32,000 nt of DNA from Acaryochloris marina MBIC11017 (GTDB lineage: Bacteria; Cyanobacteriota; Cyanobacteriia; Thermosynechococcales; Thermosynechococcaceae): positions 324,088 to 356,087 of the forward strand of contig NC_009927.1 in the NCBI RefSeq assembly GCF_000018105.1. The letters run 5' to 3'. Both the position numbers and the translations under genes were made by a program. Positions 1,503 to 18,808 of this stretch are shown here, in pieces (position 1 is the stretch's first letter; every line of letters starts with the position of its first letter). Under the pieces are notes generated by a model. It was not told where the DNA came from, made no database searches, and saw only the letters and a list, made by a program, of their open reading frames with translations.

Positions 1503-1704
1503 TGGCCCAATTAAAAGGTAGCTGATACCAGGTGCAATCAAGCACTTTTAGGGGCCTGAAACGACGTAAAAACGTTCAGATTAGAAATCACTCAATTACT
1601 GAAAGTTAAAGGATGTCGAGAAATATAAAGTCTTGAAATCCTTGATCTATATAGCTTTCAGTCTTTATTGCACCTGGAGTCATCGACCCCTCAATTGGGC
1701 CAAG
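1503..1704. repeat. ~200-bp element bounded by 36-nt imperfect inverted repeats (MITE-like, or a long hairpin) just downstream of the DyP gene
   Basis: The left arm (1503-1538, tggcccaattaaaaggtagctgataccaggtgcaat) matches the reverse complement of the right arm (1669-1704, tggcccaattgaggggtcgatgactccaggtgcaat) at 29 of 36 positions by hand count. The first 10 and last 11 nt are perfect. An inner actgaaag/ctttcagt inverted pair is also present. I saw no clear target-site duplication. Confidence 0.4.
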
Positions 1705-1734
1705 ACGTGGTTCTTTCTTATTCCTCTAAGGAAA

Positions 1735-3420: not shown

Positions 3421-3424
3421 CTTT

Positions 3425-4411
3425 TTAATTCTCCTGCCCTTTTTGGGTACCTGCTGAGCCCACTATGCCGACCGTAATGTGCTCGGCTAGCTGTGCGCCA
3501 TACTGAATTTCATGGCCGCCAATGGTCAAGTCACTTACTTGAAAACCTAAAGCTTTAGGAACGGAATACTCCAAACGCATAACCTTGCCATTGGAACCTC
3601 TCTTGGGTTGCCACCACTCAATAGGGGCAGGTGAGCCGTCCGGCTGAGCGATTCCACTGTTGTCCCAACCAAAAATATAAATGCCAATAGGTTCTTGAAG
3701 GCTGACGTATAATTTTTTGCGCAATAGCATGTGGACGTCGTAATCGACTCTTGGATCGACCGATGTCGTATATGTTGCAAAAGCTGGGTTAGCCTGATAG
3801 TTGTTGGCAGCATCAAGCGGGAACATGCTCATTTCTTCTGCCAGGCCAATAGCAGCGCCGAGAGTATTAATGTCTTGAGTGAAATGCATTATGCCGTCAG
3901 TTGTGTTCCAGCGATTTAGAATATCATAGTCGCCATTTCCATTCATTAGGTCATCTTTTTTAACTGGTTTATCTAGGGTGTCTTTATAAATTTCAACGAC
4001 TTTATCAGGATCGAATTTCCACATCTCTTCATAGTAGTTGTGCAGCTCAGTGGTAAAAGTAATCCTTGTAATGGCGTCATCGTCTTTATGGACATACCAT
4101 TCAAAATATTCGTCTTGCTCATGCCCTCTATCTTTTCGGTTCGCATTGTCTGCAGTTCTATATGCTTCCCATTTGTTGTCTCGTAAGTTTGGCAATAAGA
4201 CCCTTCTTGGAAATCCCATCCAGCTAATGGTTTTTTCTCCAATGATATCGACATCCACCTCAGCTGGATTATAAAAATGCCCCCCATTGGGGCCTGGAGT
4301 CTCTTCTGCGATAAGGCCTTTTACAAATTCATGCCATTTTTCATAGAAATCACTATCGTCATCAAAATCTTTAATAGACGCAGGTGTGTCAAATTGAGTA
4401 ATCAGAGACAT
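3425..4411 (-). CDS. Hypothetical acidic 328-aa protein, translationally coupled to the downstream DyP peroxidase
   Basis: A long ORF whose stop lies 4 nt before the DyP start codon, and the DyP SD sits inside its last codons. I recognise no family motif (it contains EQDEYFEWYV and TRITFTTELHNYY blocks). No signal peptide. Confidence 0.7.
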   Translation of the reverse strand: MSLITQFDTPASIKDFDDDSDFYEKWHEFVKGLIAEETPGPNGGHFYNPAEVDVDIIGEKTISWMGFPRRVLLPNLRDNKWEAYRTADNANRKDRGHEQDEYFEWYVHKDDDAITRITFTTELHNYYEEMWKFDPDKVVEIYKDTLDKPVKKDDLMNGNGDYDILNRWNTTDGIMHFTQDINTLGAAIGLAEEMSMFPLDAANNYQANPAFATYTTSVDPRVDYDVHMLLRKKLYVSLQEPIGIYIFGWDNSGIAQPDGSPAPIEWWQPKRGSNGKVMRLEYSVPKALGFQVSDLTIGGHEIQYGAQLAEHITVGIVGSAGTQKGQEN

Positions 4412-5017
4412 TTCACTCTCCTTAGCTGATGGAAATGAAGAATGGTATTATTTGGACGCCACTAAACATATTATCCAAAGTAAATACACATACATTGTCA
4501 AGATAGACAATCAATAAATGTTTGTGAAATATATGTTATTAAGCGAAAACATTCCCTTTATAAATTTGACTGGTTTGTAGCTCTGATACTTTCAAATCTA
4601 AATCGTTAACCAAGCTTGGAATAGAATTAAGAGCTCCATGGCATCTGTCTAGACACGAGTGATCCGTAGCGGCCTATTCTCATCTACAGGTCCTACTTTA
4701 ATCAATCTTTCTTGCCCCGTAGTTACAAAAGGATGATCCTGATCAAAAAATAAACGTGGTCCTCGATCAGAATTTGGAAAATCTTGCAATATGTTGCTTA
4801 AAGGCCTTAGCCAAAGCTCTTTCTAGCTATGGAATAAAACCCAAGTGAGTTGTGAATTAGGTGGATAATTTTCAATCGGCATTATGCTCCCGCAAGCACC
4901 CCCCAGATCAGCAGGTTCCTAGGAGTTGAGCAATGCTTCACCTAGAGATTCGAGCTGATCCCTTTACTCGATAATAGCTATCTCTATCTTCACCCAGCTG
5001 AAATCACCTGCTAAGAC

Positions 5018-8000
5018 TTAGTTTTCAACTGCCCCCAATGCCAATAGTGTGTGTTTTTGAGCTGGGGATAAACCTTTCATCTGAGTAATGTTCATGCCTG
5101 CATAGGGCTTAGTGGGTCTTAGTGTTCTTATACACTCACCAGTTTGAACATGCCAAAGTTTTATAGTTCCGTCAAAACTGCTACTAATAAGACGCTGACC
5201 ATCAGAACTAAAGGCTACTGAGGTGACACCATTTGTATGCCCCTCTAAGATTGCCAAATGCTTATGTGTTTCAACATCCCAACATCTAATCGTATGGTCT
5301 AAACTTGCAGTGGCAAGTAGTTGACCATTTGGACTAAAGGCAACATCCCAAATTTGACCTGAATGTCCTTCAAAAATACATATACAATCGTTAGTCTTAA
5401 AGTCCCAAAGTCTAGCTGTTTGATCAACACTCCCACTAGCGATAAAGTGCTCATTTGGGCTAAATGAGACGGAACTCACCCCCGATGAATGCCCTTTCAG
5501 AGTGTTTAAACACCTACCTTCTTGGATATCCCAAAGCTTAACAGTGCGATCAAAACTTCCACTCGCTAGTATTTCAGCATTCGGACTAAATGAGACAGAC
5601 CAGACCCAATGGCCATGTCCCTGAAATGTCTCCAAACATTCGCCGCTATGGATATCCCAAAGTTTGGCAGATTGATCTAACCCACTACTAGCAAGGAATT
5701 TTCCTTTCGGGTGAAATGCCAGTGACCAAATTCCATTAGAATGCCCTTTTAAGATCTTGATGCACTGCCCATTAGAAATATTCCAAAGTCTTATGGTTCG
5801 ATCACCTGTTCCACCCCCACTAGCAATGATTTGGTCATGAGGGCAATAAGCGACGGATCTGATAGCATCTGTATGCCCTGGAAAGTCTAAGCAATTGTGG
5901 TCTGAAAGTGACCAGACCCTTAGGACTTGGGCATCACCACCACTAACAAGAATCTGTTCATGTTGCTTCTCTGTTTCGGAATAGTTAAATGAACCGAAGG
6001 GAGTAGTTGCAAAAATGGCTTCAAATATGGTGAAAGTACATCCCGATAATGTTCTCAAGCATCTGCCTTTATTGTAATCCCATAGCCTAATGGAACCATC
6101 TTGGCTACTACTAGCCATAATTTTTTGAGTAGGATTTATGGCCACAGACCAAACCCAATTTGTATGCCCCAATAAAGTTTTTAAACATTTTCCAGTTCTA
6201 ATGTCCCAAATTTTTATCAGTTGATCTGCGCTACCACTAGCAAGGTAATGACCAGAGGAACATAATGCAATCGAGCGTATAGAATTTGAGTGTCCAAACA
6301 ACTTCTGTATACATTCACCACTCTGTAGATTCCATACCCTGATAATTGGATCATCGCAGGCACTCACGAGCATTTGTCCATCAGGACTGTACGCGATTGA
6401 CCAGACCCATCCAGCATGACCAGCCAATACTTTCAGGCATTGGCCGCTCTTAACCTCCCAAATCCGAATGGTTTGGTCAGCATATCCACACGCTAGTTCA
6501 TGATTATCAGGACTAAAGGCAATTGATCGGGCTGCTGCCCGGTATCTGAAGCTCTTCAAAAATTGCCCTGTTTGACTATTCCACAGCCTAACAGTGAAGT
6601 CATCACTACAACTTGCAAGGAGTGTACCGTCGGGACTGAATGCTACTTCCCAGATGAAATTAGTATGTCCCGATAAAAGTTTTAAACATTCTCCAGTACG
6701 TACGTTCCAAAGCCTAACAGTCTGGTCTGGGCCAGCACTGGCCAGCAGATGATTGGTCGGACTGAAGGCCAAAGATTTGACCCAGTTTGTATGTCCGCTA
6801 CAAGTTAAGAGGGGTTGCCCATCAGGAACTCGAAGAAGACGAATCTCGCCTTTAAAATCTCCAGCGGCAATGAGCTTGCCATCTGGGGAGAAAGCAATCG
6901 ATAGGATACCTCCAAAATCCTTGGAAAAGACTGACTGAGATAGATCTGAGTGAGTGAACTTAACCCCATGCAAGTTGAGTCCTCGTAGATCAGCTTGCCG
7001 AATTGTGAGGTGAGAAAAGTCGTAACCACAGAAATCTACAGGTAACTGTCGGAGCAAATTCAGAACATTTCCTGCGACATAACCTGCTTCTTCCGACGAT
7101 TTTCCCCGCACCACTGAAAGGAGTTGAACCAAGCAGGCTTCAAGGTGTGCTCTACTGCCTAGGACCTTTACCAGGCTAACAATTAAGGGTTGCAAGATCA
7201 GGCGAATCTGAGTGTCTTTGATATAGTCTTTCGCCTGTGCCTTTATGAGTGCATGAGTACGGAACAGATGCAATTGATTTTCCTGTCTTTCCTCATACTG
7301 TTGTTGCTCCTGAATCTCGGTACAAATTTGCTGAATGAATTTGTGGGCTGTGAACTCCATCACCACAGGTTGTTGGGTGAATCCAGTCTCAGTTTGGTCA
7401 ACCAAAGATCGACGTTGCAGCGAGGTTATCGACTGCAACAGGTCACCTGGGAGAACTTGAACCATCAAATCGAGGGCCAATTGCTCTAACTGGGCAGGCT
7501 CGCGATTAATGGTGAGCCAATACATTACAGCCTGTTCTATCTCTGATAGCCTTTCAAACTGCTTGTTGAGGAGGTCGTAGATATCCTCAAGAACGAATGG
7601 CTCCATCTGTGAGAAGCTGAGGAAACGAGAAAGACTTCCTTCAAAGCATTCTTTAATGGTTGATGACACAATTTTTAGAGCTAAGGGATTACCCGCATAG
7701 TGCTTGTTTATAGCGGACCACTCTTTTTCCGTTCCTGTGAATATGCCCTTAGTTTTAACCAAGGTCTGACAAGCATTAGTTGATAACCCTTTCAACTGCA
7801 AGCATCGAACTGGCAGGGAGTCTCCCTCCATCGCTGCAATTCCTTGTGGTTTTTCCCGAGCGGTCACCAAAACACAACTGCTGTGGGTAGCTTCTCCAAA
7901 CATTTCAAAGAGCTTGGCATAGTCTTCACAACCGGATCTATAGCGACCTGTGCGATCACCACTTTGCAATAAGGACTCTGCGTTATCTAAAATCACTAGA

Positions 8001-8824
8001 CAACGTGAGGTGCGCAGATAACTCAGAAGTAGCGAAATTTGAGATTCTATTCCCTTGGGTAAATAGTTTTCTTGTTGATTCGAGAGAAACTGGATGAGGT
8101 CAGACAAGATTTCTGTAATAGGTGGGGCACTCGCAAGACTGCGCCAAATTACAAAATCGAAGTCGTATTGGACTTTTTGAGCAAGTTGTATGGTTAGCGC
8201 TGTTTTACCCATACCTCCCATTCCGAGTACCACTATGAAACGGCAGTGTTCATCGACCAACCACTGGCTCAAAAGGGTCAGCTCAGTTTTGCGTCCATAG
8301 AACCAGGAGACATCAATAGCACTCCCCCAGTCTCGATTTCTTGTATCTAATTGGAGATCTGGATTAGCTAGGAACGAATTGACTGGTAACGCACTCGATT
8401 TCTGGTCTGTGGCCTGTTTAGACTTGAATGGCCGACGTTGCTCCCATTCCTCATCAAATTGTTTTAAATTGGCAACTTTATTGTGTCGCTTATACCAAAA
8501 GTTGAGCGTAAAATGCCATTTATTAGAGCCTTTAGGTTGAGAACGATTGTCTGTGAGAATATCTACAAACTGTTCTAGGAGTTTGAGTGATATCTTGATT
8601 TGGTCTTTACTTAGCTCTCTATTAGATGGATATTTTTTACTTAGCTCAGCTAAATCTTTAATAGTAGTTTCTACGACTAACTGTTGGTCTGTTTGCCAAT
8701 TTACCAGTATTTGAGAACGGAGTCGATCTTGTATTTCGAATTCATCATTGGCATAGGCCAGTATAACCTCTAGAAGAAATTTGGTCCTTTTTCTTGGGGT
8801 AGGGCCATAGCTTACTCTTGCCAT
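5018..8824 (-). CDS. STAND NTPase (NB-ARC/NACHT-like P-loop) with an unassigned N-terminal domain, a pentapeptide-like linker and 14 WD40 repeats
   Basis: Walker A GMGGMGKT is at aa 201-208 (nt 8201-8224). Walker B is CLVILDNAE. A helical arm follows. The stretch FSHLTIRQADLRGLNLHGVKFTHSDLSQSVF is pentapeptide-like. I counted 14 GH...WD/WN units by hand, enough for two 7-bladed propellers. Confidence 0.9.
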   Translation of the reverse strand: MARVSYGPTPRKRTKFLLEVILAYANDEFEIQDRLRSQILVNWQTDQQLVVETTIKDLAELSKKYPSNRELSKDQIKISLKLLEQFVDILTDNRSQPKGSNKWHFTLNFWYKRHNKVANLKQFDEEWEQRRPFKSKQATDQKSSALPVNSFLANPDLQLDTRNRDWGSAIDVSWFYGRKTELTLLSQWLVDEHCRFIVVLGMGGMGKTALTIQLAQKVQYDFDFVIWRSLASAPPITEILSDLIQFLSNQQENYLPKGIESQISLLLSYLRTSRCLVILDNAESLLQSGDRTGRYRSGCEDYAKLFEMFGEATHSSCVLVTAREKPQGIAAMEGDSLPVRCLQLKGLSTNACQTLVKTKGIFTGTEKEWSAINKHYAGNPLALKIVSSTIKECFEGSLSRFLSFSQMEPFVLEDIYDLLNKQFERLSEIEQAVMYWLTINREPAQLEQLALDLMVQVLPGDLLQSITSLQRRSLVDQTETGFTQQPVVMEFTAHKFIQQICTEIQEQQQYEERQENQLHLFRTHALIKAQAKDYIKDTQIRLILQPLIVSLVKVLGSRAHLEACLVQLLSVVRGKSSEEAGYVAGNVLNLLRQLPVDFCGYDFSHLTIRQADLRGLNLHGVKFTHSDLSQSVFSKDFGGILSIAFSPDGKLIAAGDFKGEIRLLRVPDGQPLLTCSGHTNWVKSLAFSPTNHLLASAGPDQTVRLWNVRTGECLKLLSGHTNFIWEVAFSPDGTLLASCSDDFTVRLWNSQTGQFLKSFRYRAAARSIAFSPDNHELACGYADQTIRIWEVKSGQCLKVLAGHAGWVWSIAYSPDGQMLVSACDDPIIRVWNLQSGECIQKLFGHSNSIRSIALCSSGHYLASGSADQLIKIWDIRTGKCLKTLLGHTNWVWSVAINPTQKIMASSSQDGSIRLWDYNKGRCLRTLSGCTFTIFEAIFATTPFGSFNYSETEKQHEQILVSGGDAQVLRVWSLSDHNCLDFPGHTDAIRSVAYCPHDQIIASGGGTGDRTIRLWNISNGQCIKILKGHSNGIWSLAFHPKGKFLASSGLDQSAKLWDIHSGECLETFQGHGHWVWSVSFSPNAEILASGSFDRTVKLWDIQEGRCLNTLKGHSSGVSSVSFSPNEHFIASGSVDQTARLWDFKTNDCICIFEGHSGQIWDVAFSPNGQLLATASLDHTIRCWDVETHKHLAILEGHTNGVTSVAFSSDGQRLISSSFDGTIKLWHVQTGECIRTLRPTKPYAGMNITQMKGLSPAQKHTLLALGAVEN
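5135..6919 (-). repeat. Array of 14 WD40 repeat units (~126-nt period) inside the STAND NTPase gene
   Basis: Recurrent GH(T/S)N.(V/I).S(V/L)AFSPDG..LAS.S.D.T(I/V)(R/K)LW(D/N) units in the translation. Coordinates are converted from aa ~636-1230. Confidence 0.85.
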
Positions 8825-8917
8825 AATTGGACCTCAAGCAAATCTATGTATTTTTTTTCTTACCTCAAGTATTTATCAGTGATTTGCACGGTATTTACGC
8901 AAGGAGTTCTAGCATCC

Positions 8918-9150
8918 TAAATAAAAAAATAGTTAGGGTATCCCTTAACTTTGATACCTACCCTTAACTTTCAAAGGCTTGATTTATAAAGGATTTAAGG
9001 TAGAAAGTTTACTTCTTGCTTGGTGTCAGTTTTCTCGCCTAGTTTGAAAGCATGAAACCTCAAAGAACTAACTGCATATCAATCAGTAGGAAGTTAAAGA
9101 TATTCTAATATATCTGAACAGCAAAGTATAAAATGCGAACTCATTAAATT
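8918..9150 (+). repeat. Copy A of a ~220-bp conserved non-coding module, upstream of ORF133 and divergent from the STAND NTPase gene
   Basis: It hand-aligns with 11043-11280 at roughly three quarters identity. Shared blocks include gttag, acctaccc(t/c)taactttcaa, taaggta, acttcttgc, ttgaaag.atgaa, aaaga.ctaact.catat, tatatctgaa and aatgc.aactc. The small ORF inside it is not conserved (18 codons in A, 3 codons in B), so the conservation is not coding. Confidence 0.65.
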
Positions 9151-9272
9151 GATAACCCATGAGCATTTTATGAGTAAAATGCTCAAAAGCTATTTCAATT
9201 CTTTTAAGTATTTTATTCTGAAATATATGCAAATACTAGCTTCAATGAGAAAAGAAAAAATGGAGAAATATA

Positions 9273-9674
9273 ATGCCGATACTTAGTGATTTCACGACTA
9301 TCGTTGGCAATCAAAGAATACTTATTGGTGATAATTCCAATAGTAGTGGTTTCACATCAAACTTTAGGACTGCAGAGAGAAGAAGCGATCGAAATGCATT
9401 CATCTCTTTCATGGTAAGAGGTATGACTCAAACAGACGAAAATGCTGAAGTCTTTGTTAATGATATACGAATTGGAAGTCTAGAGAATAACAATGGAGGT
9501 AATATAAATCTATGGCATACACAGTCAATAACACTCTCTGGGGATCGCTTAAATGACGGAGAAAATACCTTAAGAGTAGACACTGTACCAATAGCTCCTG
9601 GCACCCAAGGAGTTGGAAATTTTGATGATTTTTTTATAACGAATGTGATTTGTCATTTTCATCAAGATTCCTAG
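9273..9674 (+). CDS. Hypothetical 133-aa protein, probably an all-beta fold
   Basis: ORF with a GGAGA SD 6 nt upstream of the ATG. Preceded by repeat module A. Contains EVFVNDIRIGSL...WHTQSITLSGDRLNDGENTLRV, which is reminiscent of jelly-roll/lectin-like strands but is not assignable by eye. Confidence 0.6.
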   Translation: MPILSDFTTIVGNQRILIGDNSNSSGFTSNFRTAERRSDRNAFISFMVRGMTQTDENAEVFVNDIRIGSLENNNGGNINLWHTQSITLSGDRLNDGENTLRVDTVPIAPGTQGVGNFDDFFITNVICHFHQDS

Positions 9675-10166
9675 AAATAAGCTTGTTAGTTCGGATTTTG
9701 TGAGAAGTTTGCTAAACTCTTTTCTTCATAAATATTCTGAAACAGGTAGAGTCTATGATGCTCCCACTCTTGATCATCATTGAACTTCCTAGTTAAGGAT
9801 GTAAAGCTATTTACCTTCTTGTAACTAATGAGGTAAATCATTAGAAACTAATCGCCAAAGGAATTATATTCCGAGATTATCTGGACAGACTTATAGCTTA
9901 ATACTCTAGAACTCTTTTCTTCTTGATTTACTAATTGTTATGAATTTTATGTATTTTAAGAGGATTGATGGCACAACTTTTTGCGCAATATTAGCAGCTA
10001 ATTCTAGCACAATATTAGCAACCAACTAGAGCGCAGAGTGAGATACACTTTGCTTTTCTAATGTTCTACAGGGTAGGAATAATAGACTAAGTTGAGAAAA
10101 CTATGTATTCTTGGCACTTTGGCTGTCATTATGCGCAGACAAATAATTAACTATTAGGAGACAATC

Positions 10167-10523
10167 ATGACTAAGACTAAATCTATTTCGGATGCACATC
10201 AGCGCGTTTTTAAACTTGATGTGGAAGAAGTAATGAAGATCGTAAAACGTGGTAAACCCTTGACAGCCGATGAACTCGAAAAGTACGGACCTGATGAATT
10301 CTATTTAGCCGATCAGGTACCTGAAGAGCCTGCTTTGCATAGGAATATTCCGTTACCCGCTGAAGTAGGTGACCGTATTTTCCCAAATGTGGTCTTAGTA
10401 AGTCCATTCTTCTGCTGGTGTTCAAGCTATACATGGTGTCTCGAAATTGATGAATTTGGGCGATTACGTTATGTGTTGAAGTGCAATTACTGGTGCATTC
10501 CGCAGTTCCAAGTTTCGGCATAG
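10167..10523 (+). CDS. Hypothetical 118-aa protein with a hydrophilic N-terminal part and a Cys/Trp-rich C-terminal 40 aa
   Basis: AGGAG SD 6 nt upstream of the ATG. C-terminal tail is VSPFFCWCSSYTWCLEIDEFGRLRYVLKCNYWCIPQFQVSA, with Cys at aa 83, 85, 91, 106 and 110 and Trp at aa 84, 90 and 109. Confidence 0.6.
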   Translation: MTKTKSISDAHQRVFKLDVEEVMKIVKRGKPLTADELEKYGPDEFYLADQVPEEPALHRNIPLPAEVGDRIFPNVVLVSPFFCWCSSYTWCLEIDEFGRLRYVLKCNYWCIPQFQVSA

Positions 10524-10777
10524 AATTTTGGGGCTACATGATTAAGCGGAAATATTATTATTCCTTTATGATTTTGATGTAGTCCTGAAAATCATTTCCT
10601 AAACTTTAGACCCTGAAAAAATCGATTGATAGCTATGGATTATTTGCCTTCCTGTTGCTCTATTAGATACTGGTCTCTTAAGAGGATCTAGATTACCGTA
10701 ACCCTTGCGCAATAAACATTTGAATCTTCTCTCGTTATTTACTTTTAATCCCACATAACTAAATGATTTTGACCGCT

Positions 10778-10990
10778 CTAGATCCTGGTAATAGACCAGT
10801 GCCTAATGGGTAACTCTTTCTGCTGACACCCCAGATACAGAAACTTCAAAATGTAGTTGAATATCTTGAACAGAAAGAGCTTAAGCTGAGGCCCTCTAGT
10901 TCCGATGTGTAGATGTGGCAAGGCAAATGTTTCAAACTGCTCTAGGGTCAAGCAGGTTGGAATCCATTGATTGGAATGGGTTTGGGTATC
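10778..10990 (-). pseudogene. Relic of an IS5-family (DUF4096-type N-terminus) transposase, N-terminal ~70 codons only
   Basis: My minus-strand translation reads RADTQTHSNQWIPTCLTLEQFETFALPHLHIGTRGPQLKLFLFKIFNYILKFLYLGCQQKELPIRHWSITRI*. This matches the remembered consensus LT.EQF..FVLPHL..G.RGP...L.KIFNYILK.LYTGCQWK.LPI. There is no Met, the frame is bounded by stops, and the conserved W is replaced (QWK becomes QQK). Confidence 0.55.
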
Positions 10991-11042
10991 TGCCCTCTAA
11001 ACGAACGTCAAACTAAAAGACTGAACTCATTTTAGTTAATAT

Positions 11043-11280
11043 CTCAAATTAAAAAAGTTAGAGGAACCTCTATCTTTGAAACCTACCCCTAACTTTCAAC
11101 ATCTTAATTTAAAAGGGTTCTAAGGTAAGGAAACTACTTCTTGCGTAGTGATAGTTTCCTTAACTACCTTGAAAGTATGAAGTCTTAAAGAGCTAACTTC
11201 ATATAAACCCAGTAACAGCATAAATTTATTCAGATATATCTGAATAAAATAGCAGTGGCAATGCAAACTCTATCCAATTT
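11043..11280 (+). repeat. Copy B of the ~220-bp conserved non-coding module, upstream of the PatA/PatG-family protease
   Basis: See copy A. It also contains an 11-bp hairpin stem (11126-11136 pairing with 11152-11162) and a perfect 24-bp palindrome at 11225-11248. Confidence 0.65.
11225..11248. promoter_or_regulatory. Perfect 24-bp palindrome TTTATTCAGATATATCTGAATAAA, a candidate dimeric-regulator operator ~85 nt upstream of the protease ATG
   Basis: The reverse complement of the first 12 nt equals the last 12 nt exactly. The equivalent position in copy A (about 9098-9117, tattctaatatatctgaaca) keeps the right half-site TATCTGAA, but the left half is degenerate. Confidence 0.4.
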
Positions 11281-11332
11281 CAGCCTTGTTTGAGAGTGTA
11301 ATGTTTCGATTACAGCTTTGAGGTTATCTGTT

Positions 11333-13294
11333 ATGACCAGTGCCATTAACACTAAACCTATTTTAATAGCAGGTCTATCTGATCTTTGGGTAGAAACTAT
11401 TGGAGATCCTCAGATTAGTATTGCTATTTTAGATGGTTTCGTAGATCAATCTCACCCTAGTCTTGCTGAAGCTAAACTTACAAATTTAGAAACTATTGCC
11501 TTAAAGGCTTCCCAGCAAGGTTCAGCAGCTCAACATGGTACCCAAATTGCAAGTATTATCTTTGGTCAGCATCAAAGTTTACTCAAGGGTATTGCTCCCC
11601 AATGTCGAGGTTTGGTGATTCCTATCTTTGCTGACGGGAATCAGCAGGCAATAGATAACAATAAGTTCTCAGAGACCATTGCCCCTTGCTCCCAACTAGA
11701 TCTTGCCAGAGCTATTCTTTTAGCGGCAAATCAAGGTGCCCATATTATTAACATCAGTGGTGGACAGCTCACGCCTAGTGGAGCGGCAGATCCGATTCTC
11801 ACTAATGCTGTTCGCTATTGTATGGAGAACAACATCCTGATTGTGGCAGCAGCAGGAAATGAAGGATGCAACTGTCTGCATGTACCTGGCGCTCTACCAT
11901 CTGTTCTGGTAGTAGGTGCAATGAGTGCTACAGGAACCCCCTTAAATTTTAGCAATTGGGGTGAAGCTTACCGGACTCAAGGAGTCTTGGCATTGGGTGA
12001 AAATATCCCCGGAGCTGTTCTTGGTGGAGGAATTACATCCAGTAGTGGAACTAGCTATGCCACAGCGATCGTTTCTGGCATAGCAGCATTACTGCTGAGC
12101 CTGCAAGTCAAACGAGGGCAGACTCCCAATCCTCAAGCAATTCGAACCGCTATTTTGCAGAGCGCACTTCCCTGCGATGATCGGCCTGCTCTAGAATGTC
12201 GCCGTTTTTTAGCAGGCCGCCTCAATGTAAAAGAAGCGCTGTCCATCATTTTACAAAAAGGAGAAACTATGAGTGAAAATATAGACGTAGAAACGGTACA
12301 ACCTGACTCTAATGGAGCTGTGCAGGCAGCGCTGTCATCAAATCAATCCCAGATTCCGGCTGTTCAGGCAGCGACGTATAATCCTCCCCCTACTGAGGTA
12401 ATGCCTCATCCCGCACAAGCGCAAATAAGTTTATTAACTCAGGTAAGTCCAAGTGCCATTTCTCCATCTGCATGTAGTTGTGGAGAGGGAGGTAAAACAT
12501 CATCACAAGCACCTAGTCAAGCACAGCTAGTTTATGCTCTGGGACAGCTAGGGTATGACTTTGGTACGGAAGCACGCCAAGATTCGATTCAGGAACACAT
12601 GGGCGAAGGAGCTAATCCTCACGATCCTCGACAATTTTTACCATACCTAGATGAAAATCCTTGGGATGCAGCTATGGTCGTCTGGACGCTTAGTTTAGAT
12701 GCCACACCAATCTACGCAATTCAACCTTTTGGAGCTTATGCCGAACAAGGATATGAGCGATTGCGACAGTTTCTTAAGGAGCAATTAGAAGAGGGTGTTG
12801 AACGTATTTCGGCTCCTGGTGTCATCGTAGGACAAGTAACGTTGATGTCTGGTCAAACTGTGCCTGTGATTCTGCCAACACTTCGCTGCATGTATAGCTG
12901 GACGACATCAGCATTGATTAAAACAGTTTGTGGTGAGTCTCCTGATGAGTCTGCCGTTCAAGGGGTAACCAACTTCTTGGAAAGAGTTTATTACGAGCTG
13001 AGAAATCTAGGAATAATGCCTCAAGAAAGAGCGATCAATTATGCAGCAACAAATGCTTTAAATATCGAGCGCATTTTTGAGGCAGCCATTCTAGAAGAGA
13101 TGGATCTCGATTCAATTGAAGTGGAACCGAGTCCCCTCTGTCGTCAGGACTCTGAGTGCTGGGATGTGAAACTGACGTTTTTCAATCCCAGGCGAGTGTT
13201 CGAACAAGCTAGAAAAGTTTATCGCTTCACAGTTGATGTGAGTGATATGTGTCCGGTGAGTGTGGGGAGAGTGAGATCGTGGTTTGTGAGGTAA
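11333..13294 (+). CDS. PatA/PatG-family cyanobactin-type maturation protease: an N-terminal subtilisin (S8) domain plus the C-terminal PatA/PatG DUF domain
   Basis: Catalytic triad blocks are AILDGFVDQSHP (Asp), AAQHGTQIASIIFGQH (His) and SGTSYATAIVSGIAALLLS (Ser). After a P/A/Q/S-rich linker comes LVYALGQLGYDFGTEARQDSIQEHM...WTLSLDATPIYAIQP...ERISAPGVIVGQVTLMSGQTVPVI, which closely resembles the PatA/PatG C-terminal domain as I remember it. The track ORF starts at TTG 11318, but ATG 11333 is more likely. Confidence 0.85.
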   Translation: MTSAINTKPILIAGLSDLWVETIGDPQISIAILDGFVDQSHPSLAEAKLTNLETIALKASQQGSAAQHGTQIASIIFGQHQSLLKGIAPQCRGLVIPIFADGNQQAIDNNKFSETIAPCSQLDLARAILLAANQGAHIINISGGQLTPSGAADPILTNAVRYCMENNILIVAAAGNEGCNCLHVPGALPSVLVVGAMSATGTPLNFSNWGEAYRTQGVLALGENIPGAVLGGGITSSSGTSYATAIVSGIAALLLSLQVKRGQTPNPQAIRTAILQSALPCDDRPALECRRFLAGRLNVKEALSIILQKGETMSENIDVETVQPDSNGAVQAALSSNQSQIPAVQAATYNPPPTEVMPHPAQAQISLLTQVSPSAISPSACSCGEGGKTSSQAPSQAQLVYALGQLGYDFGTEARQDSIQEHMGEGANPHDPRQFLPYLDENPWDAAMVVWTLSLDATPIYAIQPFGAYAEQGYERLRQFLKEQLEEGVERISAPGVIVGQVTLMSGQTVPVILPTLRCMYSWTTSALIKTVCGESPDESAVQGVTNFLERVYYELRNLGIMPQERAINYAATNALNIERIFEAAILEEMDLDSIEVEPSPLCRQDSECWDVKLTFFNPRRVFEQARKVYRFTVDVSDMCPVSVGRVRSWFVR

Positions 13295-13363
13295 CTAACT
13301 TCACTGCTGTAATGGTTTCTTGAATCAAGATTACTCAATTTATAGTTTTAGGAGAATAACAAG

Positions 13364-13552
13364 ATGAGAATTCCAAACCAGTCTATTGGTCAGATACGTT
13401 CTAACCCTGCAATAGAGAAAACCGCTGTCTCAGGAGGTGTACAGCCTTCTGGCCCCGGTTTGGGAAGGCTTTGTAACGAAATTTGCCGTTCTCCAGGAGG
13501 AGGAGGGGTTTGTCCTTTGTGTGAATTTCTCTCACTCGTACCTGGTTTCTAA
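13364..13552 (+). CDS. 62-aa Cys-rich small ORF, a candidate precursor or secreted peptide
   Basis: AGGAG at 13350-13354, 9 nt before the ATG. Sequence is MRIPNQSIGQIRSNPAIEKTAVSGG/VQPSGPGLGRLCNEICRSPGGGGVCPLCEFLSLVPGF, with a CxxxC...CxxC pattern. A perfect terminator hairpin follows ~20 nt after the stop. It starts 69 nt after the protease stop. Confidence 0.5.
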   Translation: MRIPNQSIGQIRSNPAIEKTAVSGGVQPSGPGLGRLCNEICRSPGGGGVCPLCEFLSLVPGF

Positions 13553-13573
13553 GGTAAAACTTGATCAACGGTG

Positions 13574-13605
13574 ATGTTTTGGGTGAGAGGATTCACCCAA
13601 AACAT
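13574..13605 (+). terminator. Strong stem-loop (13-bp perfect stem, 6-nt loop) closing the protease/small-ORF unit
   Basis: atgttttgggtga (13574-13586), gaggat loop, tcacccaaaacat (13593-13605). The downstream sequence is only weakly T-rich (ttctcgcaactgatttcggattttt), so it may act as an intrinsic terminator or as an RNA-stabilising hairpin. Confidence 0.55.
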
Positions 13606-13861
13606 TCTCGCAACTGATTTCGGATTTTTATATGGTTAACCTGAAATATTGGCTGTTAATGAAAAAACCCGAATCACAACACATCACTTTCTTCCTCTAA
13701 AACCTCAAACCGTCTTGTTTGAATTCCATTAAAAGAGGATGCACTACCTACAACTCGCTATCGACTGAACAGCCTTATAGAAAGGGATATAAACTCTTTC
13801 AGCAAGCCCATGCCATGAATATTTTGATTAGACGATATCTTATTACCGAAAGGAAAATACC

Positions 13862-14401
13862 ATGAGCAACGAACTTTTTATCAAAGGTCCTCACGTCCCG
13901 ATTGAGGAACGTGCGCTGGAACGATTAAAGCGTGCAGTGGAACTGGGTGAACTTGAAAAACTACCGAATACTCCGGGTATTCCCAACGTGCCGCGCTACC
14001 TGGTCACGTATATGAACTCACAAACTGTGAATACTCAGATGCGCTCAGCCACGGTCGTATCCGTGACCAACCAGAGTAATTTAATCAATCGAGTATTTGT
14101 TACATTCTTTAAGGGTTTCACGGACGACTCATCACCGATCGGAACTGCAGCGTTTGCTATCCCACCACAGTTCACGGTAGATTTTGCATCACGAAGCCTA
14201 CCCAGTGAATTGACGGTTACAAATGCTGTTCCAAATCCAGAATTAACTTTCGACGAGGGTCGTGCAATTGTATCGTCGATGTGGCCGGAAATTGGCGTGA
14301 GCGCACGTGTCTACTACACGGCTGGTGACAATGATGAGCGCCTACATGCCATCACCGACTCAAAAGTAGTCATTTATAGTAGAAGCAATAGCGGAGACTG
14401 A
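13862..14401 (+). CDS. Hypothetical 179-aa protein with codon usage unlike its neighbours
   Basis: ORF with a weak AAGGA SD. Many CCG/ACG/GCG/CGT/CTG codons, unlike the A/T-ending codons of the adjacent cassette genes. No recognisable motif. Confidence 0.6.
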   Translation: MSNELFIKGPHVPIEERALERLKRAVELGELEKLPNTPGIPNVPRYLVTYMNSQTVNTQMRSATVVSVTNQSNLINRVFVTFFKGFTDDSSPIGTAAFAIPPQFTVDFASRSLPSELTVTNAVPNPELTFDEGRAIVSSMWPEIGVSARVYYTAGDNDERLHAITDSKVVIYSRSNSGD

Positions 14402-14745
14402 CTACAGGGTCTAAGGATAACGAAGGCACCAAAAACGGCAAGGCAGCAATTTTGAGTTGTTCAATCTAGTAGAGGTAGATTCCCTGCTGCTTCCAGTGAA
14501 AAAATGGGATTACAATCCAAGTCTACGGTTTGGGAGCAAATCGTATTCCATACCCCGTCTGCTTGCAGCGGGGCAGTTGATTGACTTTTCCTTAGTAGAG
14601 GATATCTGCATGACCCCCAACTCGTCTCACTGAAGCCCAAACCACCAGCCGCCCCCCGCTGAAACCCTCGACGAACACCAGCACAACCATCACATACCCG
14701 GATAAGGTATCATTTCCGACCATCGCTCGAAACGATGATCTGCCA

Positions 14746-15228
14746 GTGAAGCGCAAGGTAGCTCCAGAGCCTGGAGACGATGATCGCAACCCCGAACCTA
14801 CCCTCAGATACAGCCGCAGAGAATCCACCGACACCCAGAGAACACAGCGAGGGTATTCAGCTCGGCATACAACTAGTAGAACCCGACCCCCCAGAGTCTC
14901 CAGAGCATTTGAGTCCAAGTTCAATGCCCTTGAGCGCAGACAGAAGAATTTGGTTCAGCAGACCAAGCAAAAGGGTCAGCTTGAGTATCTGACCGTTTCC
15001 AAAAGCAGCTCAGGGAATTATTGGATCACCATCGAAGGTAGTGGTAAGCCATTCATCAAAATTTCGTTTGAAACGCCCGAGTTTTGCTTCGAGTGCGCTT
15101 TGGAGCTAGAGAATACGTTCGACGTGTTGCAGGTTTTAAGACTGCGGCCAGGGGAAACTATCGAGCGGATCGAGGAAATGATCGGGGTGTGGTTGGAGCG
15201 GGAGAGGGGGAGTAGGGCTTGGGGATGA
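14746..15228 (+). CDS. Hypothetical protein; the start is uncertain (GTG), and the C-terminal ~70 aa is conserved in a downstream truncated paralog
   Basis: The C-terminal block GSGKPFIKISFETPEFCFECALELENTFDVLQVLRLRPGETIERIEEMIGVWLERERGSRAWG recurs at 15690-15908. The N-terminal R/T/P-rich part is GC-rich and open in several frames, so the true start is unclear. Confidence 0.45.
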   Translation: MKRKVAPEPGDDDRNPEPTLRYSRRESTDTQRTQRGYSARHTTSRTRPPRVSRAFESKFNALERRQKNLVQQTKQKGQLEYLTVSKSSSGNYWITIEGSGKPFIKISFETPEFCFECALELENTFDVLQVLRLRPGETIERIEEMIGVWLERERGSRAWG

Positions 15229-15689
15229 TAGGTTGTGGGCACCCAGCTTGTTTTCCTGTTTTAATAGTCGCTTGGGGAGAATAGCGGTTTTAGTGTAATT
15301 TGTGTAATCAAGATTTTGGTCACACATTCTGCAATCATATCAACTCAGATTTTGACCTTTAAAGTAGATGCATGGTTGGCATGTGTGACATTTTTATCGA
15401 ATCACGGATGTGTTCCATTACTGGGATAGAATTATTGTCAAGAGACTAACAACATCTCGCTTAGAAATTTCCGGGGGAAATGATATGTGGTCACATTTAG
15501 ATCGTTCTTTGGGATTATTTAGCTTAATCGCTGCACTGACCTTAGTTATTGTAGAGCCATTAACCAGTGGGGATTGGCAGTCTAAACCAAAGTCTAACTC
15601 TGCCTCGGATAAAATCATTCTAAGTCAAAAACCTGCTAGCTCTTTATCAGAGCATCTTCTGAGATAACGAATCAGGGAAGCCTAAATAA

Positions 15690-15908
15690 TTTACAGCTAT
15701 TGCCAGAAACATAGTAGGCAGTGGAAAGCCGCTCATCAGAATTCCGTTTGAAAGTCCTGAATTCTACTTTGAGTGTGCGTTGGAATTGGAGGATACTTTC
15801 GATGTGTTGCAGGTAATTGAGCTGCGGCCAGGGGAAACTATTGAGCGGATTGAGGAGATGATCGGGGTGTGGTTGGATCGGGAGCGGGTGAGTAGGGTTT
15901 GGGGGTGA
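15690..15908 (+). pseudogene. Truncated paralog (C-terminal 72 codons, no start codon) of the 14746-15228 gene
   Basis: My translation reads FTAIARNIVGSGKPLIRIPFESPEFYFECALELEDTFDVLQVIELRPGETIERIEEMIGVWLDRERVSRVWG*. It is bounded upstream by TAA at 15687-15689 and has no ATG/GTG/TTG. The track's minus-strand ORF 15672-15956 is its antisense shadow. Confidence 0.55.
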
Positions 15909-16197: not shown

Positions 16198-17655
16198 TCA
16201 GAATCCATGTAAGCCGTGGGTTGGAAAACCAGGACAATTTGAACAAAACATTGACCTGTCAACCGATTCCCCAACCCACAGGAGAAGTTCTATGAAAATT
16301 CTAGGCATTGACTTAGGCAAATACAACACCGCCGCTTGCTTATTTAATACTCAGACTCACGACACTCTCTTTTTCACCTTTAAATCCTTTGCGCGTGAAT
16401 TCAAAGCCTTGCTCTACCAAACTCAGCCAGAGCAGGTCGTCATTGAAGCTTGCACGATTACCGGTTGGGTTTACGACCTGTGCCGAGCAGAAGGCTTTGA
16501 TACTATTGTGGCTAACCCTACTCAAGAAGCTTGGTATTGGAAGAACGTCAAACGCAAAACAGATAAAGATGATGCACTCAAATTGACCAAGTTAGCTGCA
16601 CTTGGTCAGCTTTCCCCGGTCTACGTTCCACCTGCTGAGTCTCGTCAATATCGGCAACTTGTGAAATATCGTAAACGGTTGGTCGGCCAGACTAATAAAA
16701 CTCAAAATACAATTCGTGCATTATTTAACCAACAAGGAATCTCCATACCTACAGGGTCAAGAGCTTGGACAGTTTCTGGGATTGAGCAACTCCAGCGGTA
16801 TGCCAAAACGTTGTCTGATTGCTCGCTATTGTCTTTATGGCAGGGACAAATTGATTTAGAGCTAAATCGATTAGATGCACTATGGGAACAACTACATTTA
16901 GTCGATACCAAACTTACCGAGATTGCCAAACAAGATGCCAGGGTTCAGTTGCTCGAATCAATTCCAGGGGTAGGGCGTAAAACCGCAGAAGTAGTGGTGG
17001 CTTACATTGATGATCCTAAGCGATTCAAAAACGCAAGACAGGTAGGTGCTTATGCTGGATTGGTGCCGCGTCAACATCAGTCTGGCGATATGAATCGAAT
17101 GGGCAAGATCACTCGGCGTGGCCCTCGACTTTTACGATCTGCTTTAGTCGAGGCTTCTTGGGTGATGTTACGCTACAACTCCTGGGCTGCGGACTTGTAT
17201 CAAAGACTTTGTGGTGGTCAGAAAACTAGAAGGAAGCAAGCTATTGTTGCTGTCGCTCGTAAGTTATTAGTGCTTTGTTGGACATTGCTAAGAAAGCAAG
17301 AGCCATGGGACCTTGATAAGATAAGTCCCCTAGCAGCATAGACATTTTTCCTTTTGCATAATAGGTTTACGGATTTCTATATTCCCTTGATTGGGAAATC
17401 TACCTCAGAGCTTGGAGACCTTTCCTAGTCTGATTTGCTTCAAGATTGCAATTCCGAATAAGCCTGAGTTAATTTGCATGTCACTCGTGAGACGATACGA
17501 TTTAGCCAAAATGTATCGGAAACTCGGATAGTCGGTTAAGCCCTTATCCTATACATAAAGAAGAAAAGAGTTAACAAGAAAGGAGCCAATATAGATACTT
17601 ACCTAGCCAATAAAATGGCTGGCATTTATTAGGCTGCTAAAAAGTCAAAACAATA
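16198..17655 (+). mobile_element. IS110-family insertion sequence; boundaries are approximate
   Basis: An intact transposase gene flanked by unrelated truncated genes: a membrane-protein fragment on the left and an IS6-like fragment from ~17661 on the right. No terminal IRs, as is usual for this family. A 9-bp hairpin (gtgggttgg 16216-16224 / ccaacccac 16271-16279) sits just before the GGAGA SD. About 300 nt of non-coding sequence lies 3' of the CDS. Confidence 0.55.
16292..17341 (+). CDS. IS110-family transposase (DEDD N-terminal domain plus Transposase_20 C-terminal domain)
   Basis: MKILGIDLGKYNTAACL... is the RuvC-like DEDD start. IPGVGRKTAEVVVAYIDDPKRFKNARQVGAYAGLVPRQHQSGD...GKITRRGPRLLRSALVEA is the hallmark HhH/Ser block of IS110 transposases. 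Full length at 349 aa. Confidence 0.92.
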   Translation: MKILGIDLGKYNTAACLFNTQTHDTLFFTFKSFAREFKALLYQTQPEQVVIEACTITGWVYDLCRAEGFDTIVANPTQEAWYWKNVKRKTDKDDALKLTKLAALGQLSPVYVPPAESRQYRQLVKYRKRLVGQTNKTQNTIRALFNQQGISIPTGSRAWTVSGIEQLQRYAKTLSDCSLLSLWQGQIDLELNRLDALWEQLHLVDTKLTEIAKQDARVQLLESIPGVGRKTAEVVVAYIDDPKRFKNARQVGAYAGLVPRQHQSGDMNRMGKITRRGPRLLRSALVEASWVMLRYNSWAADLYQRLCGGQKTRRKQAIVAVARKLLVLCWTLLRKQEPWDLDKISPLAA

Positions 17656-17660
17656 CCTGT

Positions 17661-18033
17661 TGACACTCCTACGGCTTCATAGTCGAGATATGGAAGGTAC
17701 CAAAGCCTTCTTTGCTCAAGCGATTGAGCTTCACAAAATGTGCCTAACAATGTGGCGACCGATGGTTTGGCATCCTATCCTCGCGCCATTGAAGAAGAGT
17801 TGGGGGAGGACGTAGAGCATGAGGTTTGTCCCCGAATAGAGAATTCAGTCGAACAGAGTCACAGACCCGTCAAACACCGGTATCATCCAACCCTAGGATT
17901 CGGAGAATTTGAAGCAGCTCATAGATTCTGCAAAGCGGTAGATGAAGTGAGTATCTTTTTGAGACCTCGCACTCGAAAAAGAGAATTCGTGCCTCTGTTT
18001 GACAAAAGAAAGAAGTTCATTAAAGGTGCTAGT
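17661..18033 (+). pseudogene. IS6-family transposase fragment: N-terminally truncated, frameshifted, and 3'-clipped by the IS1-like element
   Basis: LTLLRLHSRDMEGTKAFFAQAIELHK is in one frame. After a +1 shift near 17738 comes PNNVATDGLASYPRAIEEELGEDVEHEV...IENSVEQSHRPVKHRYHPTLGFGEFEAAHRFCKAVDEV, which fits the IS6/IS26 pattern TDKxxxYxxAI...N.(I/V)E..H..(L/V)K. The first half of the DDE domain is missing. Confidence 0.7.
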
Positions 18034-18808
18034 GGGTAGTCCGCCAGATGTAAGGATAGGTATATCCAACATCCAAAATCCAGCATCACCCATGTCAACA
18101 TTGACCTGCCCTAGCTGTCGTTCTCAAAATGTTGTCAAAATCCTTAATGGCAAGCAAAACCACAAATGTAAAACCTGTGGCCGTCAGTTTGTGGAAGCTC
18201 CTCAGTAAAAGCGAATTGATTCATCCACTAAAGGCCTGATCGATAAGCTATTGCTTGAGAAGATACCTCTGGCAGGTATTGCTAGGGTCTGCGATGTTTC
18301 TGAAAGGTGGTTACAAGAGTACGTGAACTATAAGTATGCAGCAGTGCCTCATACTGTGAACGTATCATCAAAAAAAAGGCCGATTAACGCTTCAATGCGA
18401 TGAAATGTGGTCATTTGTGAACGATAAGAGCAATAAACAGTGAATATGGCTTGCGCTTGATATCATTACTCGTGAGATAGTCGGTGTTTATGTGGGGGCA
18501 CGCTCCCAGCAAGGCGCTCGTCAGCTATGGAATTCCTTGCCAGGAGTCTATCGTCAATGTGCGGTTGCCTACACGGATTTTTGGGATGCCTACGGCTGTG
18601 TTTTTTTTCCCAAGCAGGGACATCAACCTGTGGGCAAGGAAACAGGCCAAACCTGCTACATTGAACGATTTAATTGCACCCTGCGCCAGCGAGTGTCTCG
18701 GTTAGTTCGAAAGACACTGTCGTTCTCGAAAAAGCTTGAGAATCATATTGGGGCTATCTGGATGTTTGTCCATCACTACAATGCATCCTTACAGGACTAG
18801 GACTACCC
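18034..18808 (+). mobile_element. Decayed IS1-family element (775 bp) with 24-bp imperfect terminal inverted repeats
   Basis: The left IR (gggtagtccgccagatgtaaggat, 18034-18057) matches the reverse complement of the right IR (18785-18808, gggtagtcctagtcctgtaaggat) at 18 of 24 positions, and the outer 9 and inner 9 nt are perfect. No flanking direct repeat was seen. Confidence 0.7.
18092..18800 (+). pseudogene. IS1-family transposase, inactivated by two nonsense codons and one frameshift
   Basis: Zn-finger MSTLTCPSCRSQNVVK..HKCKTCGRQF, then an in-frame TAA at 18206-18208. HTH GIARVCDVSERWL follows, then an A8 run at 18370-18377; removing one A would fuse the frames. Next comes LQCDEMWSFVNDKSNKQ, then a TGA at 18441-18443 in place of Trp, then IWLALDIITREIVGVYVG...YTDFWDAY...ETGQTCYIERFNCTLRQRVSRLVRKTLSFSKKLENHIGAIW. 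Confidence 0.75.

Follow-up and report, generated by a model that had tools for sequence, protein, structure and literature searches.

The 32,000-nt stretch of Acaryochloris marina MBIC11017 DNA analyzed here (the window; NC_009927.1, positions 324,088 to 356,087) encodes a cyanobactin-type maturation protease that is followed by a small open reading frame (ORF) of 62 codons, ORF62. Comparisons with related loci indicate that ORF62 is probably the precursor peptide gene of a minimal, single-protease, cyanobactin-like system residing on a plasmid of this species. The searches described below establish that the gene is real and belongs to a conserved family, what its synteny and the type of the protease are, and that no other pathway genes lie close by. 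An earlier sequence-only reading of this DNA had taken the small ORF for a genuine gene and likely protease substrate, and a match to a leader profile together with conserved synteny backs that view. Its assignment of the processing site is revised here: the cut is now predicted after Ser29.

ORF62 is a protease-linked gene

ORF62 occupies window positions 13364-13552 (+; 62 aa plus the stop codon), ends in ...EFLSLVPGF, and is absent from the RefSeq annotation. A gap of 69 nt (13295-13363) separates its ATG from the protease stop codon, and a Shine-Dalgarno-like AGGAG, read from the sequence, lies 9 nt before the ATG (13350-13354, +). All coordinates and residue positions in the sequence-only reading, including those of the ORF, the gap and the AGGAG, prove correct. 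No Pfam or NCBIfam model matches ORF62. As a protein query against 5.8 billion proteins it retrieves only itself, since the core has no relatives there and a conserved box of 12 residues is too short for so coarse a word index; it has been called as a gene in Logan assemblies only. The PLSDB gene table of a closely related plasmid, NZ_AP026076.1, holds no coding sequence (CDS) between the protease and a 179-aa ORF, and the MBIC11017 protease and 179-aa ORF carry the consecutive accessions ABW32113 and ABW32114. ORF62 has therefore remained unannotated.

To model the leader, a hidden Markov model (HMM) was made from the N-terminal 45 residues of 90 small ORFs that lie downstream of homologous proteases in other genomes; the window itself was left out. 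This model matches ORF62 at E = 1.2e-7 (30 bits) among 4346 ORFs. In a six-frame translation of the window, ORF62 (E = 1.4e-8) is its only match. An HMM derived from non-cyanobacterial loci alone still matches ORF62 (E = 4.8e-5), and a tblastn search with ORF62 yields weak matches to its N-terminus directly downstream of several PatA-like proteases. A chance ORF is rejected by the leader HMM result, and nothing supports the two ORFs that overlap it, at 13401-13568 (-) and 13437-13574 (+). Judged by these comparisons, ORF62 genuinely belongs to a conserved family of peptides linked to proteases, and a missed gene is added to a well-studied genome.

A peptide family downstream of A-type proteases

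Related loci (80 in all) were retrieved, with alignment of the closest protease homologs, from contigs representing one genome per species. Cyanobacterial proteases in this set are 60-73% identical to that of the window. The corresponding range is 42-56% for those of Acidobacteriota, Planctomycetota, Competibacter, Nitrospira, Chloroflexota, Mesorhizobium, Clostridium, Aquimarina and Myxococcus. Downstream of the related proteases lie one to five ORFs, each about 50-110 aa long. They share an architecture that starts with M(K/R)(L/I)PxQ(S/A)xP(V/I)xR, has a G(I/V)x(P/A)S motif 20-30 residues further in, and continues into a hypervariable, usually cysteine-rich tail. The family is defined here, without curation, as ORFs of 40-130 aa that begin with M[KR][LIF]PxQ[SA]xP[VI]xR and lie on the same strand just 3' of an A-type protease. 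ORF62 has both the leader box and the position, as well as a GVQPS sequence at residues 25-29 and a core with four cysteines.

At E < 1e-3, 139 family ORFs are found in 73 of the 80 loci, and 133 of them are downstream of the protease on its strand. The first family ORF begins a median of 84 nt past the protease stop codon, to which the 69 nt of ORF62 compare closely. Such an ORF follows the protease on the same strand in 72/80 loci, in agreement with the earlier suggestion that protease and peptide look like one transcription unit. An exhaustive comparison of the leader profile with 1.84 billion representative proteins gives at least 94 clusters at a library-wide E <= 1e-3, a number that is a lower bound because the profile is short. 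Members of these clusters are all 40-108 aa long, and the match starts at residue 1 in nearly all of them. Every family member whose annotation was looked up is a 'hypothetical protein', and precomputed Pfam domains are lacking throughout.

Several features of individual members were noted. A second plasmid-borne protease-peptide pair is present on pGLO7428.01 of Gloeocapsa sp. PCC 7428 (L089:5990-6238). Its peptide, located about 130 nt past the protease, reads MMKLPVQAAPVQR…GIKPS followed by a core with ten cysteines; the PLSDB table has no CDS for it and the locus tag RS24425 is skipped. The core NCIPNC(I/V/L)CVSPxxCPCC(D/E)S(L/I)… is common to L005:4227-4451, L010:8489-8722, L018:8005-8385 and L025:8570-8794, which come from cyanobacteria, an acidobacterium and an unclassified metagenome-assembled genome (MAG) and are all situated behind proteases. 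Hairpin-type CxxCxxxC…CxxxCxxxxC cores are found in Mesorhizobium, Bryobacteraceae and Aquimarina. On the basis of such sequences, peptide cassettes appear to move between phyla.

The protease is of the leader-removing type

The protease gene (11333-13294, +) encodes 653 aa. Its ORF (11318-13294) opens at a TTG that merely extends the reading frame, and gene callers and NCBI choose the ATG at 11333. NCBIfam model TIGR03895 (protease_PatA) scores 829 bits on the protein, with a cutoff of 421. The protein is identical to, or one residue different from, WP_261891610.1 and WP_012167256.1, which are named 'PatA/PatG family cyanobactin maturation protease'. It consists of a subtilase (S8) catalytic domain (11411-12166, +; Pfam PF00082, E = 6e-28) and a C-terminal cyanobactin domain of unknown function (DUF; 12530-13282, +), the latter made up of PatG_D (12530-12814; PF18047, 9e-13) and PatG_C (12938-13282; PF18065, 8e-46). 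This organization, together with the TIGR03895 score, bears out its earlier description as a PatA/PatG-type protease. The subtilase motif residues D34 (ILDG), H68 (HGT), N176 and S241 (GTSYA) are invariant in an alignment of 27 homologs, and the protein has no signal peptide.

The catalytic domain gives whole-domain matches to the crystal structures 4h6w (PagA, 338 bits) and 4h6v (PatA, 320 bits), whereas the PatG/PagG macrocyclase domains score 162-166 bits. Because the PagA and PatA matches are about twice as strong, the protease is classified by these comparisons as an A-type enzyme that removes leaders, and not as a macrocyclase. The DUF region matches the PatG-DUF structure 4uvq (204 bits). 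A role for the cyanobactin DUF as the docking site for the leader box was considered; this idea is disfavored for the PatG-DUF, for which published nuclear magnetic resonance work saw no PatE binding.

Two further observations concern these domains. When the protease (11333-12310) is set against the structures of PagA and PatA, a 13-residue insertion (NQQAIDNNKFSET, residues about 101-113) is seen past the conserved IPIFADG segment. In some Acidobacteria and Myxococcus, proteins consisting of PatG_D and PatG_C only are encoded 3' of the protease (L029:8393-9196, L030:8059-10131, L074 at about 9950-10675), with a duplication in L030. The DUF can thus work as a separate protein.

A conserved leader box and a PatA-like recognition site

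ORF62 begins with the leader box MRIPNQSIGQIR (13364-13399, +), which corresponds to the consensus M[KR][LI]PxQ[SA]xP[VI]xR. Column frequencies over 140 family ORFs are 99% for the proline, 81% for the glutamine and 89% for the arginine of this box. The closest variants of the ORF62 box are MKIPNQSTGQIR from Symploca (L006) and MKLPRQSAGQMR from L011. The second conserved block in the same 140 ORFs comprises G (58%), I or V (90%), any residue, P or A (92%) and S (67%). In its strict form, G[LIV]x[AP]S at residues 13-51, it occurs in 48/140 family ORFs versus 30/4092 other ORFs in the same DNA (odds ratio 71, p = 2e-54).

Residues G25-V-Q-P-S29 of ORF62 (13436-13450, +) align exactly with this second block, and GVQPS is found in two further members (L077 and P0155). 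PatA-like enzymes cut after G(L/V)E(A/P)S (PMC10885120). The ORF62 sequence agrees with this site at G, V, P and S, and Q replaces E. The sequence-only reading had seen no site of this type and had concluded that the specificity, if the peptide is a substrate, differs from known cyanobactin systems. Both statements are superseded by the family alignment, in which GVQPS resembles recognition sequence II (RSII) of PatA substrates. Its identification as an N-terminal recognition sequence of the cyanobactin-precursor type, with cleavage predicted after Ser29, is well supported by this alignment. Tandem RSII-like sites (GVEASSVEAS; GVAPSTTAVQPS) are present in four relatives, P0153, P0165, P0159 and P0160, which suggests stepwise or alternative cleavage.

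Other pathway genes are absent nearby

Pfam and NCBIfam searches of the window (ORFs of >=90 aa, plus ORF62) reveal no YcaO protein, second S8 protease, prenyltransferase, radical SAM enzyme or exporter, and no PatB, PatC, PatD (YcaO) or PatF. Nor does the window contain a C39 peptidase or ABC transporter. The 393-kb plasmid pREC1 of A. marina MBIC10699 (NZ_AP026076.1), which shares this region, has a single PatA/G-like locus; the chromosome was outside this search. The families listed for the 95 neighboring proteins at the 16 closest loci include neither YcaO nor a second S8, a prenyltransferase or a radical SAM family, and the sole exporter-type family listed is the FtsX permease (two proteins). 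In the first 54 loci, no second S8 match lies closer than 6 kb to the protease, and one of the 80 loci, L057, has extra S8-like fragments. C-terminal recognition sequences of the AYDG or FAGDDAE type are absent from ORF62. A motif resembling recognition sequence III (RSIII) was likewise found in none of the family members inspected by eye, with the exception of a PirE-family precursor in L055.

The only Pfam families that recur among the 95 neighbors are AraC-type regulators (seven), GNAT acetyltransferases (five) and response regulators (three). AraC regulators and GNATs were rejected as conserved partners, since they recur in cyanobacterial relatives and are absent beside the window protease. 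ORF179 and a 118-aa ORF upstream of the protease (ORF118) were rejected as well because they have no counterpart in related loci. The conserved module therefore consists of the protease and its peptides.

Predicted core peptide and proposed maturation

The predicted core, GPGLGRLCNEICRSPGGGGVCPLCEFLSLVPGF (13451-13549, +), is 33 aa long and has the cysteine spacing C-x3-C-x8-C-x2-C. The CxxxC...CxxC pattern reported from the sequence alone corresponds to C37-x3-C41-x8-C50-x2-C53. Calculated masses of the core are 3303.60 Da in the reduced form and 3299.57 Da with two disulfides. Family cores contain 10.5% cysteine versus 3.2% in background ORFs (p = 9e-28). Even cysteine counts outnumber odd ones by 70 to 23, as expected from disulfide pairing. 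The pattern CxxxC-x(5-14)-Cx(2,3)C is present in 36/118 family cores versus 10/2103 background ORFs, and ORF62 fits this class. Further family members instead have cysteine-free amphipathic tails past a GVEAS sequence, and these resemble linear antimicrobial peptides.

In a single-sequence AlphaFold2 model, helices at residues 32-41 and 49-58 (pLDDT, the model's per-residue confidence, about 70-74) carry the two cysteine pairs on either side of a PGGGG turn. A disulfide-stapled helical hairpin is probably the most economical reading of this predicted core, and a Cys4 metal site is the main alternative. Plant alpha-hairpinins have a comparable CX3C-Xn-CX3C arrangement in which two short helices each bear a cysteine pair and are joined by two disulfides. 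The likeness is a structural analogy with no sequence relationship; the second pair in ORF62 is CX2C, and its fold is a prediction of moderate confidence.

These features suggest the following maturation pathway. A 62-aa pre-peptide would be made with a cyanobactin-type leader containing the MRIPNQSIGQIR box and then GVQPS. The adjacent A-type subtilase would recognize G-V-x-P-S and cut after Ser29, setting free the 33-aa peptide GPGLGRLCNEICRSPGGGGVCPLCEFLSLVPGF. With neither a C-terminal recognition sequence nor a PatG macrocyclase, heterocyclase or prenyltransferase present, this product should stay linear. The four cysteines on the two predicted helices would most likely pair into two disulfides and so staple the peptide as a helix-turn-helix hairpin. 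The finished peptide would presumably act as an antimicrobial or a signal. With two genes and predicted masses, the system offers a concrete and cheap test case.

Several points weigh against this interpretation. Two conserved positions of the consensus are changed in the ORF62 box (P to G and V to Q), a variant also common to the Symploca and Phormidiaceae relatives, and the P3 residue of the predicted cleavage site is Q instead of E. The core has no homolog anywhere in the protein search. Only identical copies of ORF62 exist, so purifying selection on the core is not assessable. Overall confidence in the AlphaFold2 model is low (mean pLDDT 61). No exporter or thiol oxidase is encoded nearby to account for disulfide formation in a cytoplasmic peptide or for its exit from the cell. 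The leader profile matches no Protein Data Bank (PDB) chain at E <= 10, and thus provides no direct link to crystallized PatE; the sequence that we take to be PatE scores weakly against the leader HMM. Short motifs are therefore what ties the family to PatE proper. That the protease cleaves ORF62, and the chemistry proposed for the product, are predictions argued on comparative grounds.

Alternative explanations

One alternative is that ORF62 is a PatB-like accessory or decoy that binds or regulates the protease and gives rise to no bioactive product. In canonical-type loci, for example in Microcoleus, the protease is followed by PatB/AcyB/McaB (TIGR04220, 122 bits; a model of 61 positions with a cutoff of 55 bits), which starts MRLPILSPPVKRP. 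PatB is non-essential and has no assigned function. ORF62 holds the same slot directly after the A protease and has the same N-terminal box. Leader HMMs built without PatB match 21/21 PatB-like ORFs (E = 2.6e-5 to about 0.02). However, ORF62 does not match TIGR04220 at E <= 1, a PatB-only HMM reaches it at just E = 3.6, and it lacks the PatB central region (VDxxxG...DLLHGANYNDP). It has instead an RSII-like GVQPS and a hypervariable cysteine-rich tail, as the precursor-like members do. By these sequence criteria ORF62 is not a PatB, and an accessory role is unlikely. It is slightly less likely again that ORF62 serves as the E-peptide in a complete cyanobactin pathway, with a PatG-type protease and tailoring enzymes encoded at other places in the genome, in which case the product would be shorter, cyclic or modified. 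Classical reviews give two proteases to all cyanobactin clusters, and other enzymes could lie on the chromosome. Counting against such a pathway are the missing AYDG- or FAGDDAE-like sequence, the single PatA/G-like locus of pREC1, and the relatives in 16 genomes from several phyla that likewise comprise a protease and peptides only. The by-eye search for RSIII-like motifs points the same way.

The freed four-cysteine peptide could alternatively serve in the cytoplasm as a metal-binding peptide with a Cys4 site that includes its CPLC motif, and not as a disulfide-stapled secreted peptide. The lack of an exporter, signal peptide or oxidase nearby and the C-x3-C...C-x2-C pattern are compatible with this, as are weak matches of two family members to the metal-binding CopL family (E = 0.015). 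A metal-related function has also been proposed for patellamides (PMC13266932). Yet most family cores have 6-10 cysteines in even numbers and many are knottin-like, whereas others are cysteine-free, amphipathic and antimicrobial-like. A 2019 conference abstract moreover reports disulfide bridges in cyanobactin-type products, and metal binding is accordingly judged improbable. Least probable of all is a double-glycine leader, the resemblance pointed out in the sequence-only reading, with a C39 peptidase-domain ABC transporter or a similar enzyme cutting behind AVSGG (residue 25). This cut would yield a 37-aa peptide with a calculated reduced mass of 3714.81 Da. The leader does end in AVSGG with V at -4 and E at -8, as had been described, and G24-G25 in this setting resembles double-glycine leaders. 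Like class II bacteriocins with such leaders and cyanobacterial HetP/Nif11-type peptides, ORF62 would combine a cleavable hydrophilic leader with a core that contains disulfides and is otherwise unmodified. Those peptides depend on a C39 peptidase-ABC exporter, whereas the conserved genetic partner here is an S8 subtilase of the cytoplasm, from a family that cleaves behind the serine of the motif, four residues past the two glycines. No such exporter is present in the window, and the two FtsX permeases are the only exporter-type proteins listed among the 95 neighbors at the closest loci. The second glycine is the conserved residue that opens G(I/V)x(P/A)S. Because the residue before G25 is variable in the family (S/A/N/T/G), the double-glycine resemblance is taken from the alignment to be coincidental.

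Relation to known systems

Cyanobactin pathways are considered here in the sense of Sivonen 2010 and Martins 2015. The ORF62 system has a PatA-type protease with a C-terminal DUF and an E-type leader with a GVQPS recognition site. It is without a PatG-type second protease, a C-terminal recognition sequence and PatB, PatC, PatD or PatF. The classical definition places two proteases in all cyanobactin clusters (PMC2854353). Since the second protease and the C-terminal recognition sequence are both missing, the system is a variant and not a canonical member. It would work like the N-terminal half of a cyanobactin pathway, as far as its sequences can tell.

Canonical cyanobactin clusters (pat, tru, ten, acy and pag) encode PatA, PatG and PatE, with or without PatD, PatF, PatB and PatC. 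They share with the ORF62 system an A-type subtilase with a DUF, a precursor box of the LPxQxxP(V/I)xR type, a G(V)x(P)S sequence at the leader-core junction, and an operon-like placement of the genes. Unlike them, the ORF62 system has no PatG, C-terminal recognition sequence, heterocyclase, oxidase, prenyltransferase, PatB or PatC. A single 33-aa cysteine-rich core takes the place of cassettes of 6-20 residues, and the leader is short (29 aa) and without the LAELSEEAL-type helix used by PatD. The linear cyanobactins (aeruginosamides, viridisamide and muscorides) are alike in that there is no macrocyclization and a PatA-type protease removes the leader. Their clusters, reportedly described by Leikoski et al. 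in 2013, are said to keep a G-type protease or YcaO-based C-terminal trimming along with prenyl and methyl transferases and to make heavily modified products of 3-5 residues. Neither a G-type protease, nor YcaO trimming, nor prenyl or methyl transferase genes are found at the ORF62 locus, unlike in linear cyanobactin clusters. In one of the latter, MusD carries out a YcaO-based C-terminal trimming (PMC10885120).

Comparison with the curated precursor families shows a similarly partial overlap. Recurrent sub-threshold NCBIfam matches of 62 family members are to PirE/anacyclamide (four), PatE/microcyclamide (three) and PatB (two), with no others. The curated E families TIGR04446 and TIGR03678 remain below threshold for relatives and have no match to ORF62. 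The precursor in L055 is a bona fide PirE-family member (50 bits, above the cutoff), and the non-cyanobacterial leader HMM matches it at E = 0.004. The PatB box MxLPxxSxPVKR is the same box as that of the precursor-like peptides (loci L044-L072, for example L044:8068-8319). From these sequences, PatB may descend from such precursors in degenerate form, or it may mimic them in docking to the protease.

Considered jointly, these observations permit a broader and tentative proposal, which we regard as having slightly less than an even chance of being correct. A very large and essentially uncharacterized class of systems resembling those for peptides that are made on ribosomes and modified after translation (RiPPs) might use an A-type protease alone to make linear products. 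These products might be disulfide-stapled hairpins, knottin-like peptides or cysteine-free amphipathic peptides. Canonical pathways would then be an offshoot of this class, and PatB a degenerate relative that kept only the protease-docking box. The class would span Cyanobacteria, Acidobacteriota, Planctomycetota, Alphaproteobacteria, Gammaproteobacteria, Clostridia, Bacteroidota, Nitrospirota and Chloroflexota. In the wider picture, a minimal cyanobactin-type pathway would, with no macrocyclase, lead to peptides that are long, linear and rich in cysteine. The family has no Pfam or NCBIfam models and its members, wherever the annotation was looked up, are called 'hypothetical protein', so mining tools keyed to PatG, PatD or known E-peptide models miss its products. 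A role is also suggested for the N-terminal box conserved in cyanobactin leaders and PatB, which is the sole element to co-vary across phyla with the A protease.

The 2019 conference abstract already describes cyanobactin pathways across the bacterial domain, many of them encoding potent antimicrobial peptides, with disulfide bridges among the modifications. Apart from this abstract, no literature on protease-only (PatA-only), cysteine-rich systems was found. The general idea has thus been aired; ORF62 itself, its site assignment and the family definition were found nowhere in the literature searched. For RiPP specialists, the appeal lies in a known system that occurs here in a minimal, widespread and so far unannotated form, and not in a categorical surprise.

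A hairpin downstream of ORF62

A perfect hairpin of 13 bp with a 6-nt loop begins 21 nt past the ORF62 stop codon (13574-13605, +; arms 13574-13586 and 13593-13605) and may be a terminator or an RNA-stabilizing element. In an 88-nt context the predicted folding energy is -26.4 kcal/mol (z = -3.6 versus shuffled sequences), and the element is unique in the window. It had been described as a terminator belonging to ORF62. The perfect 13-bp stem-loop is as reported, but the sequence that follows, CATTCTCGC, has no run of uridines, and a terminator scan does not call it. Rfam finds no RNA families in the window, so the hairpin corresponds to no known element. The structure is terminator-like and not a canonical intrinsic terminator, with a terminator role being plausible from its sequence.

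Plasmid setting and neighboring genes

The window is 99.9% identical to pREC1 (393.6 kb, conjugative), whose host strain, MBIC10699, came from the ascidian Diplosoma similis in Palau. Synteny covers window positions 1-15902 and stops at 15902. There are five single-nucleotide polymorphisms in 8 kb and none inside ORF62. The neighbors of the protease-peptide pair in the window are two small proteins without a known family, an EAD4-NB-ARC-WD40 protein, a DyP peroxidase, insertion sequence (IS) elements and housekeeping genes.

Two small ORFs precede the protease. The product of ORF133 (133 aa, 9273-9674, +) has a 43%-identical homolog (E = 1e-27) in a Phormidiaceae MAG (L011:3466-3819), where it is likewise located upstream of a related protease. 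It is the only recurring neighbor besides the peptide, recurs in L011 only, and has no more than a weak family match (DUF7383/beta-sandwich). ORF118 (10167-10523, +), identical to ABW32111.1 of MBIC11017, sits between ORF133 and the protease. Its C-terminus is rich in cysteine and tryptophan (…FFCWCSSYTWCLEIDEFGRLRYVLKCNYWCIPQF…); it has no family matches and no leader box, and it is confined to Acaryochloris (a cluster of three).

Genes farther upstream are divergent from the peptide locus. A STAND-type EAD4-NB-ARC-WD40 protein of 1268 aa (5018-8824, -) resembles components of conflict systems, and a DUF8225 protein (3425-4411, -) and a DyP-type peroxidase (1735-3420, -) are also encoded there. 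No tie between these genes and the peptide system was established. GC content is 33-45% over the first 14 kb of the window (1-14 kb) versus 47-51% over 19-32 kb. A 199-nt direct repeat of 81% identity (15030-15228 and 15710-15908) encodes a repeated ...FDVLQV..LRPGETIERIEEMIGVWL.RER.SR.WG segment. An IS110-family transposase and IS240- and IS1-type transposase fragments follow 3' of this repeat (16292-17341 and 17740-18800), such that a stretch rich in mobile elements begins just past the peptide locus.

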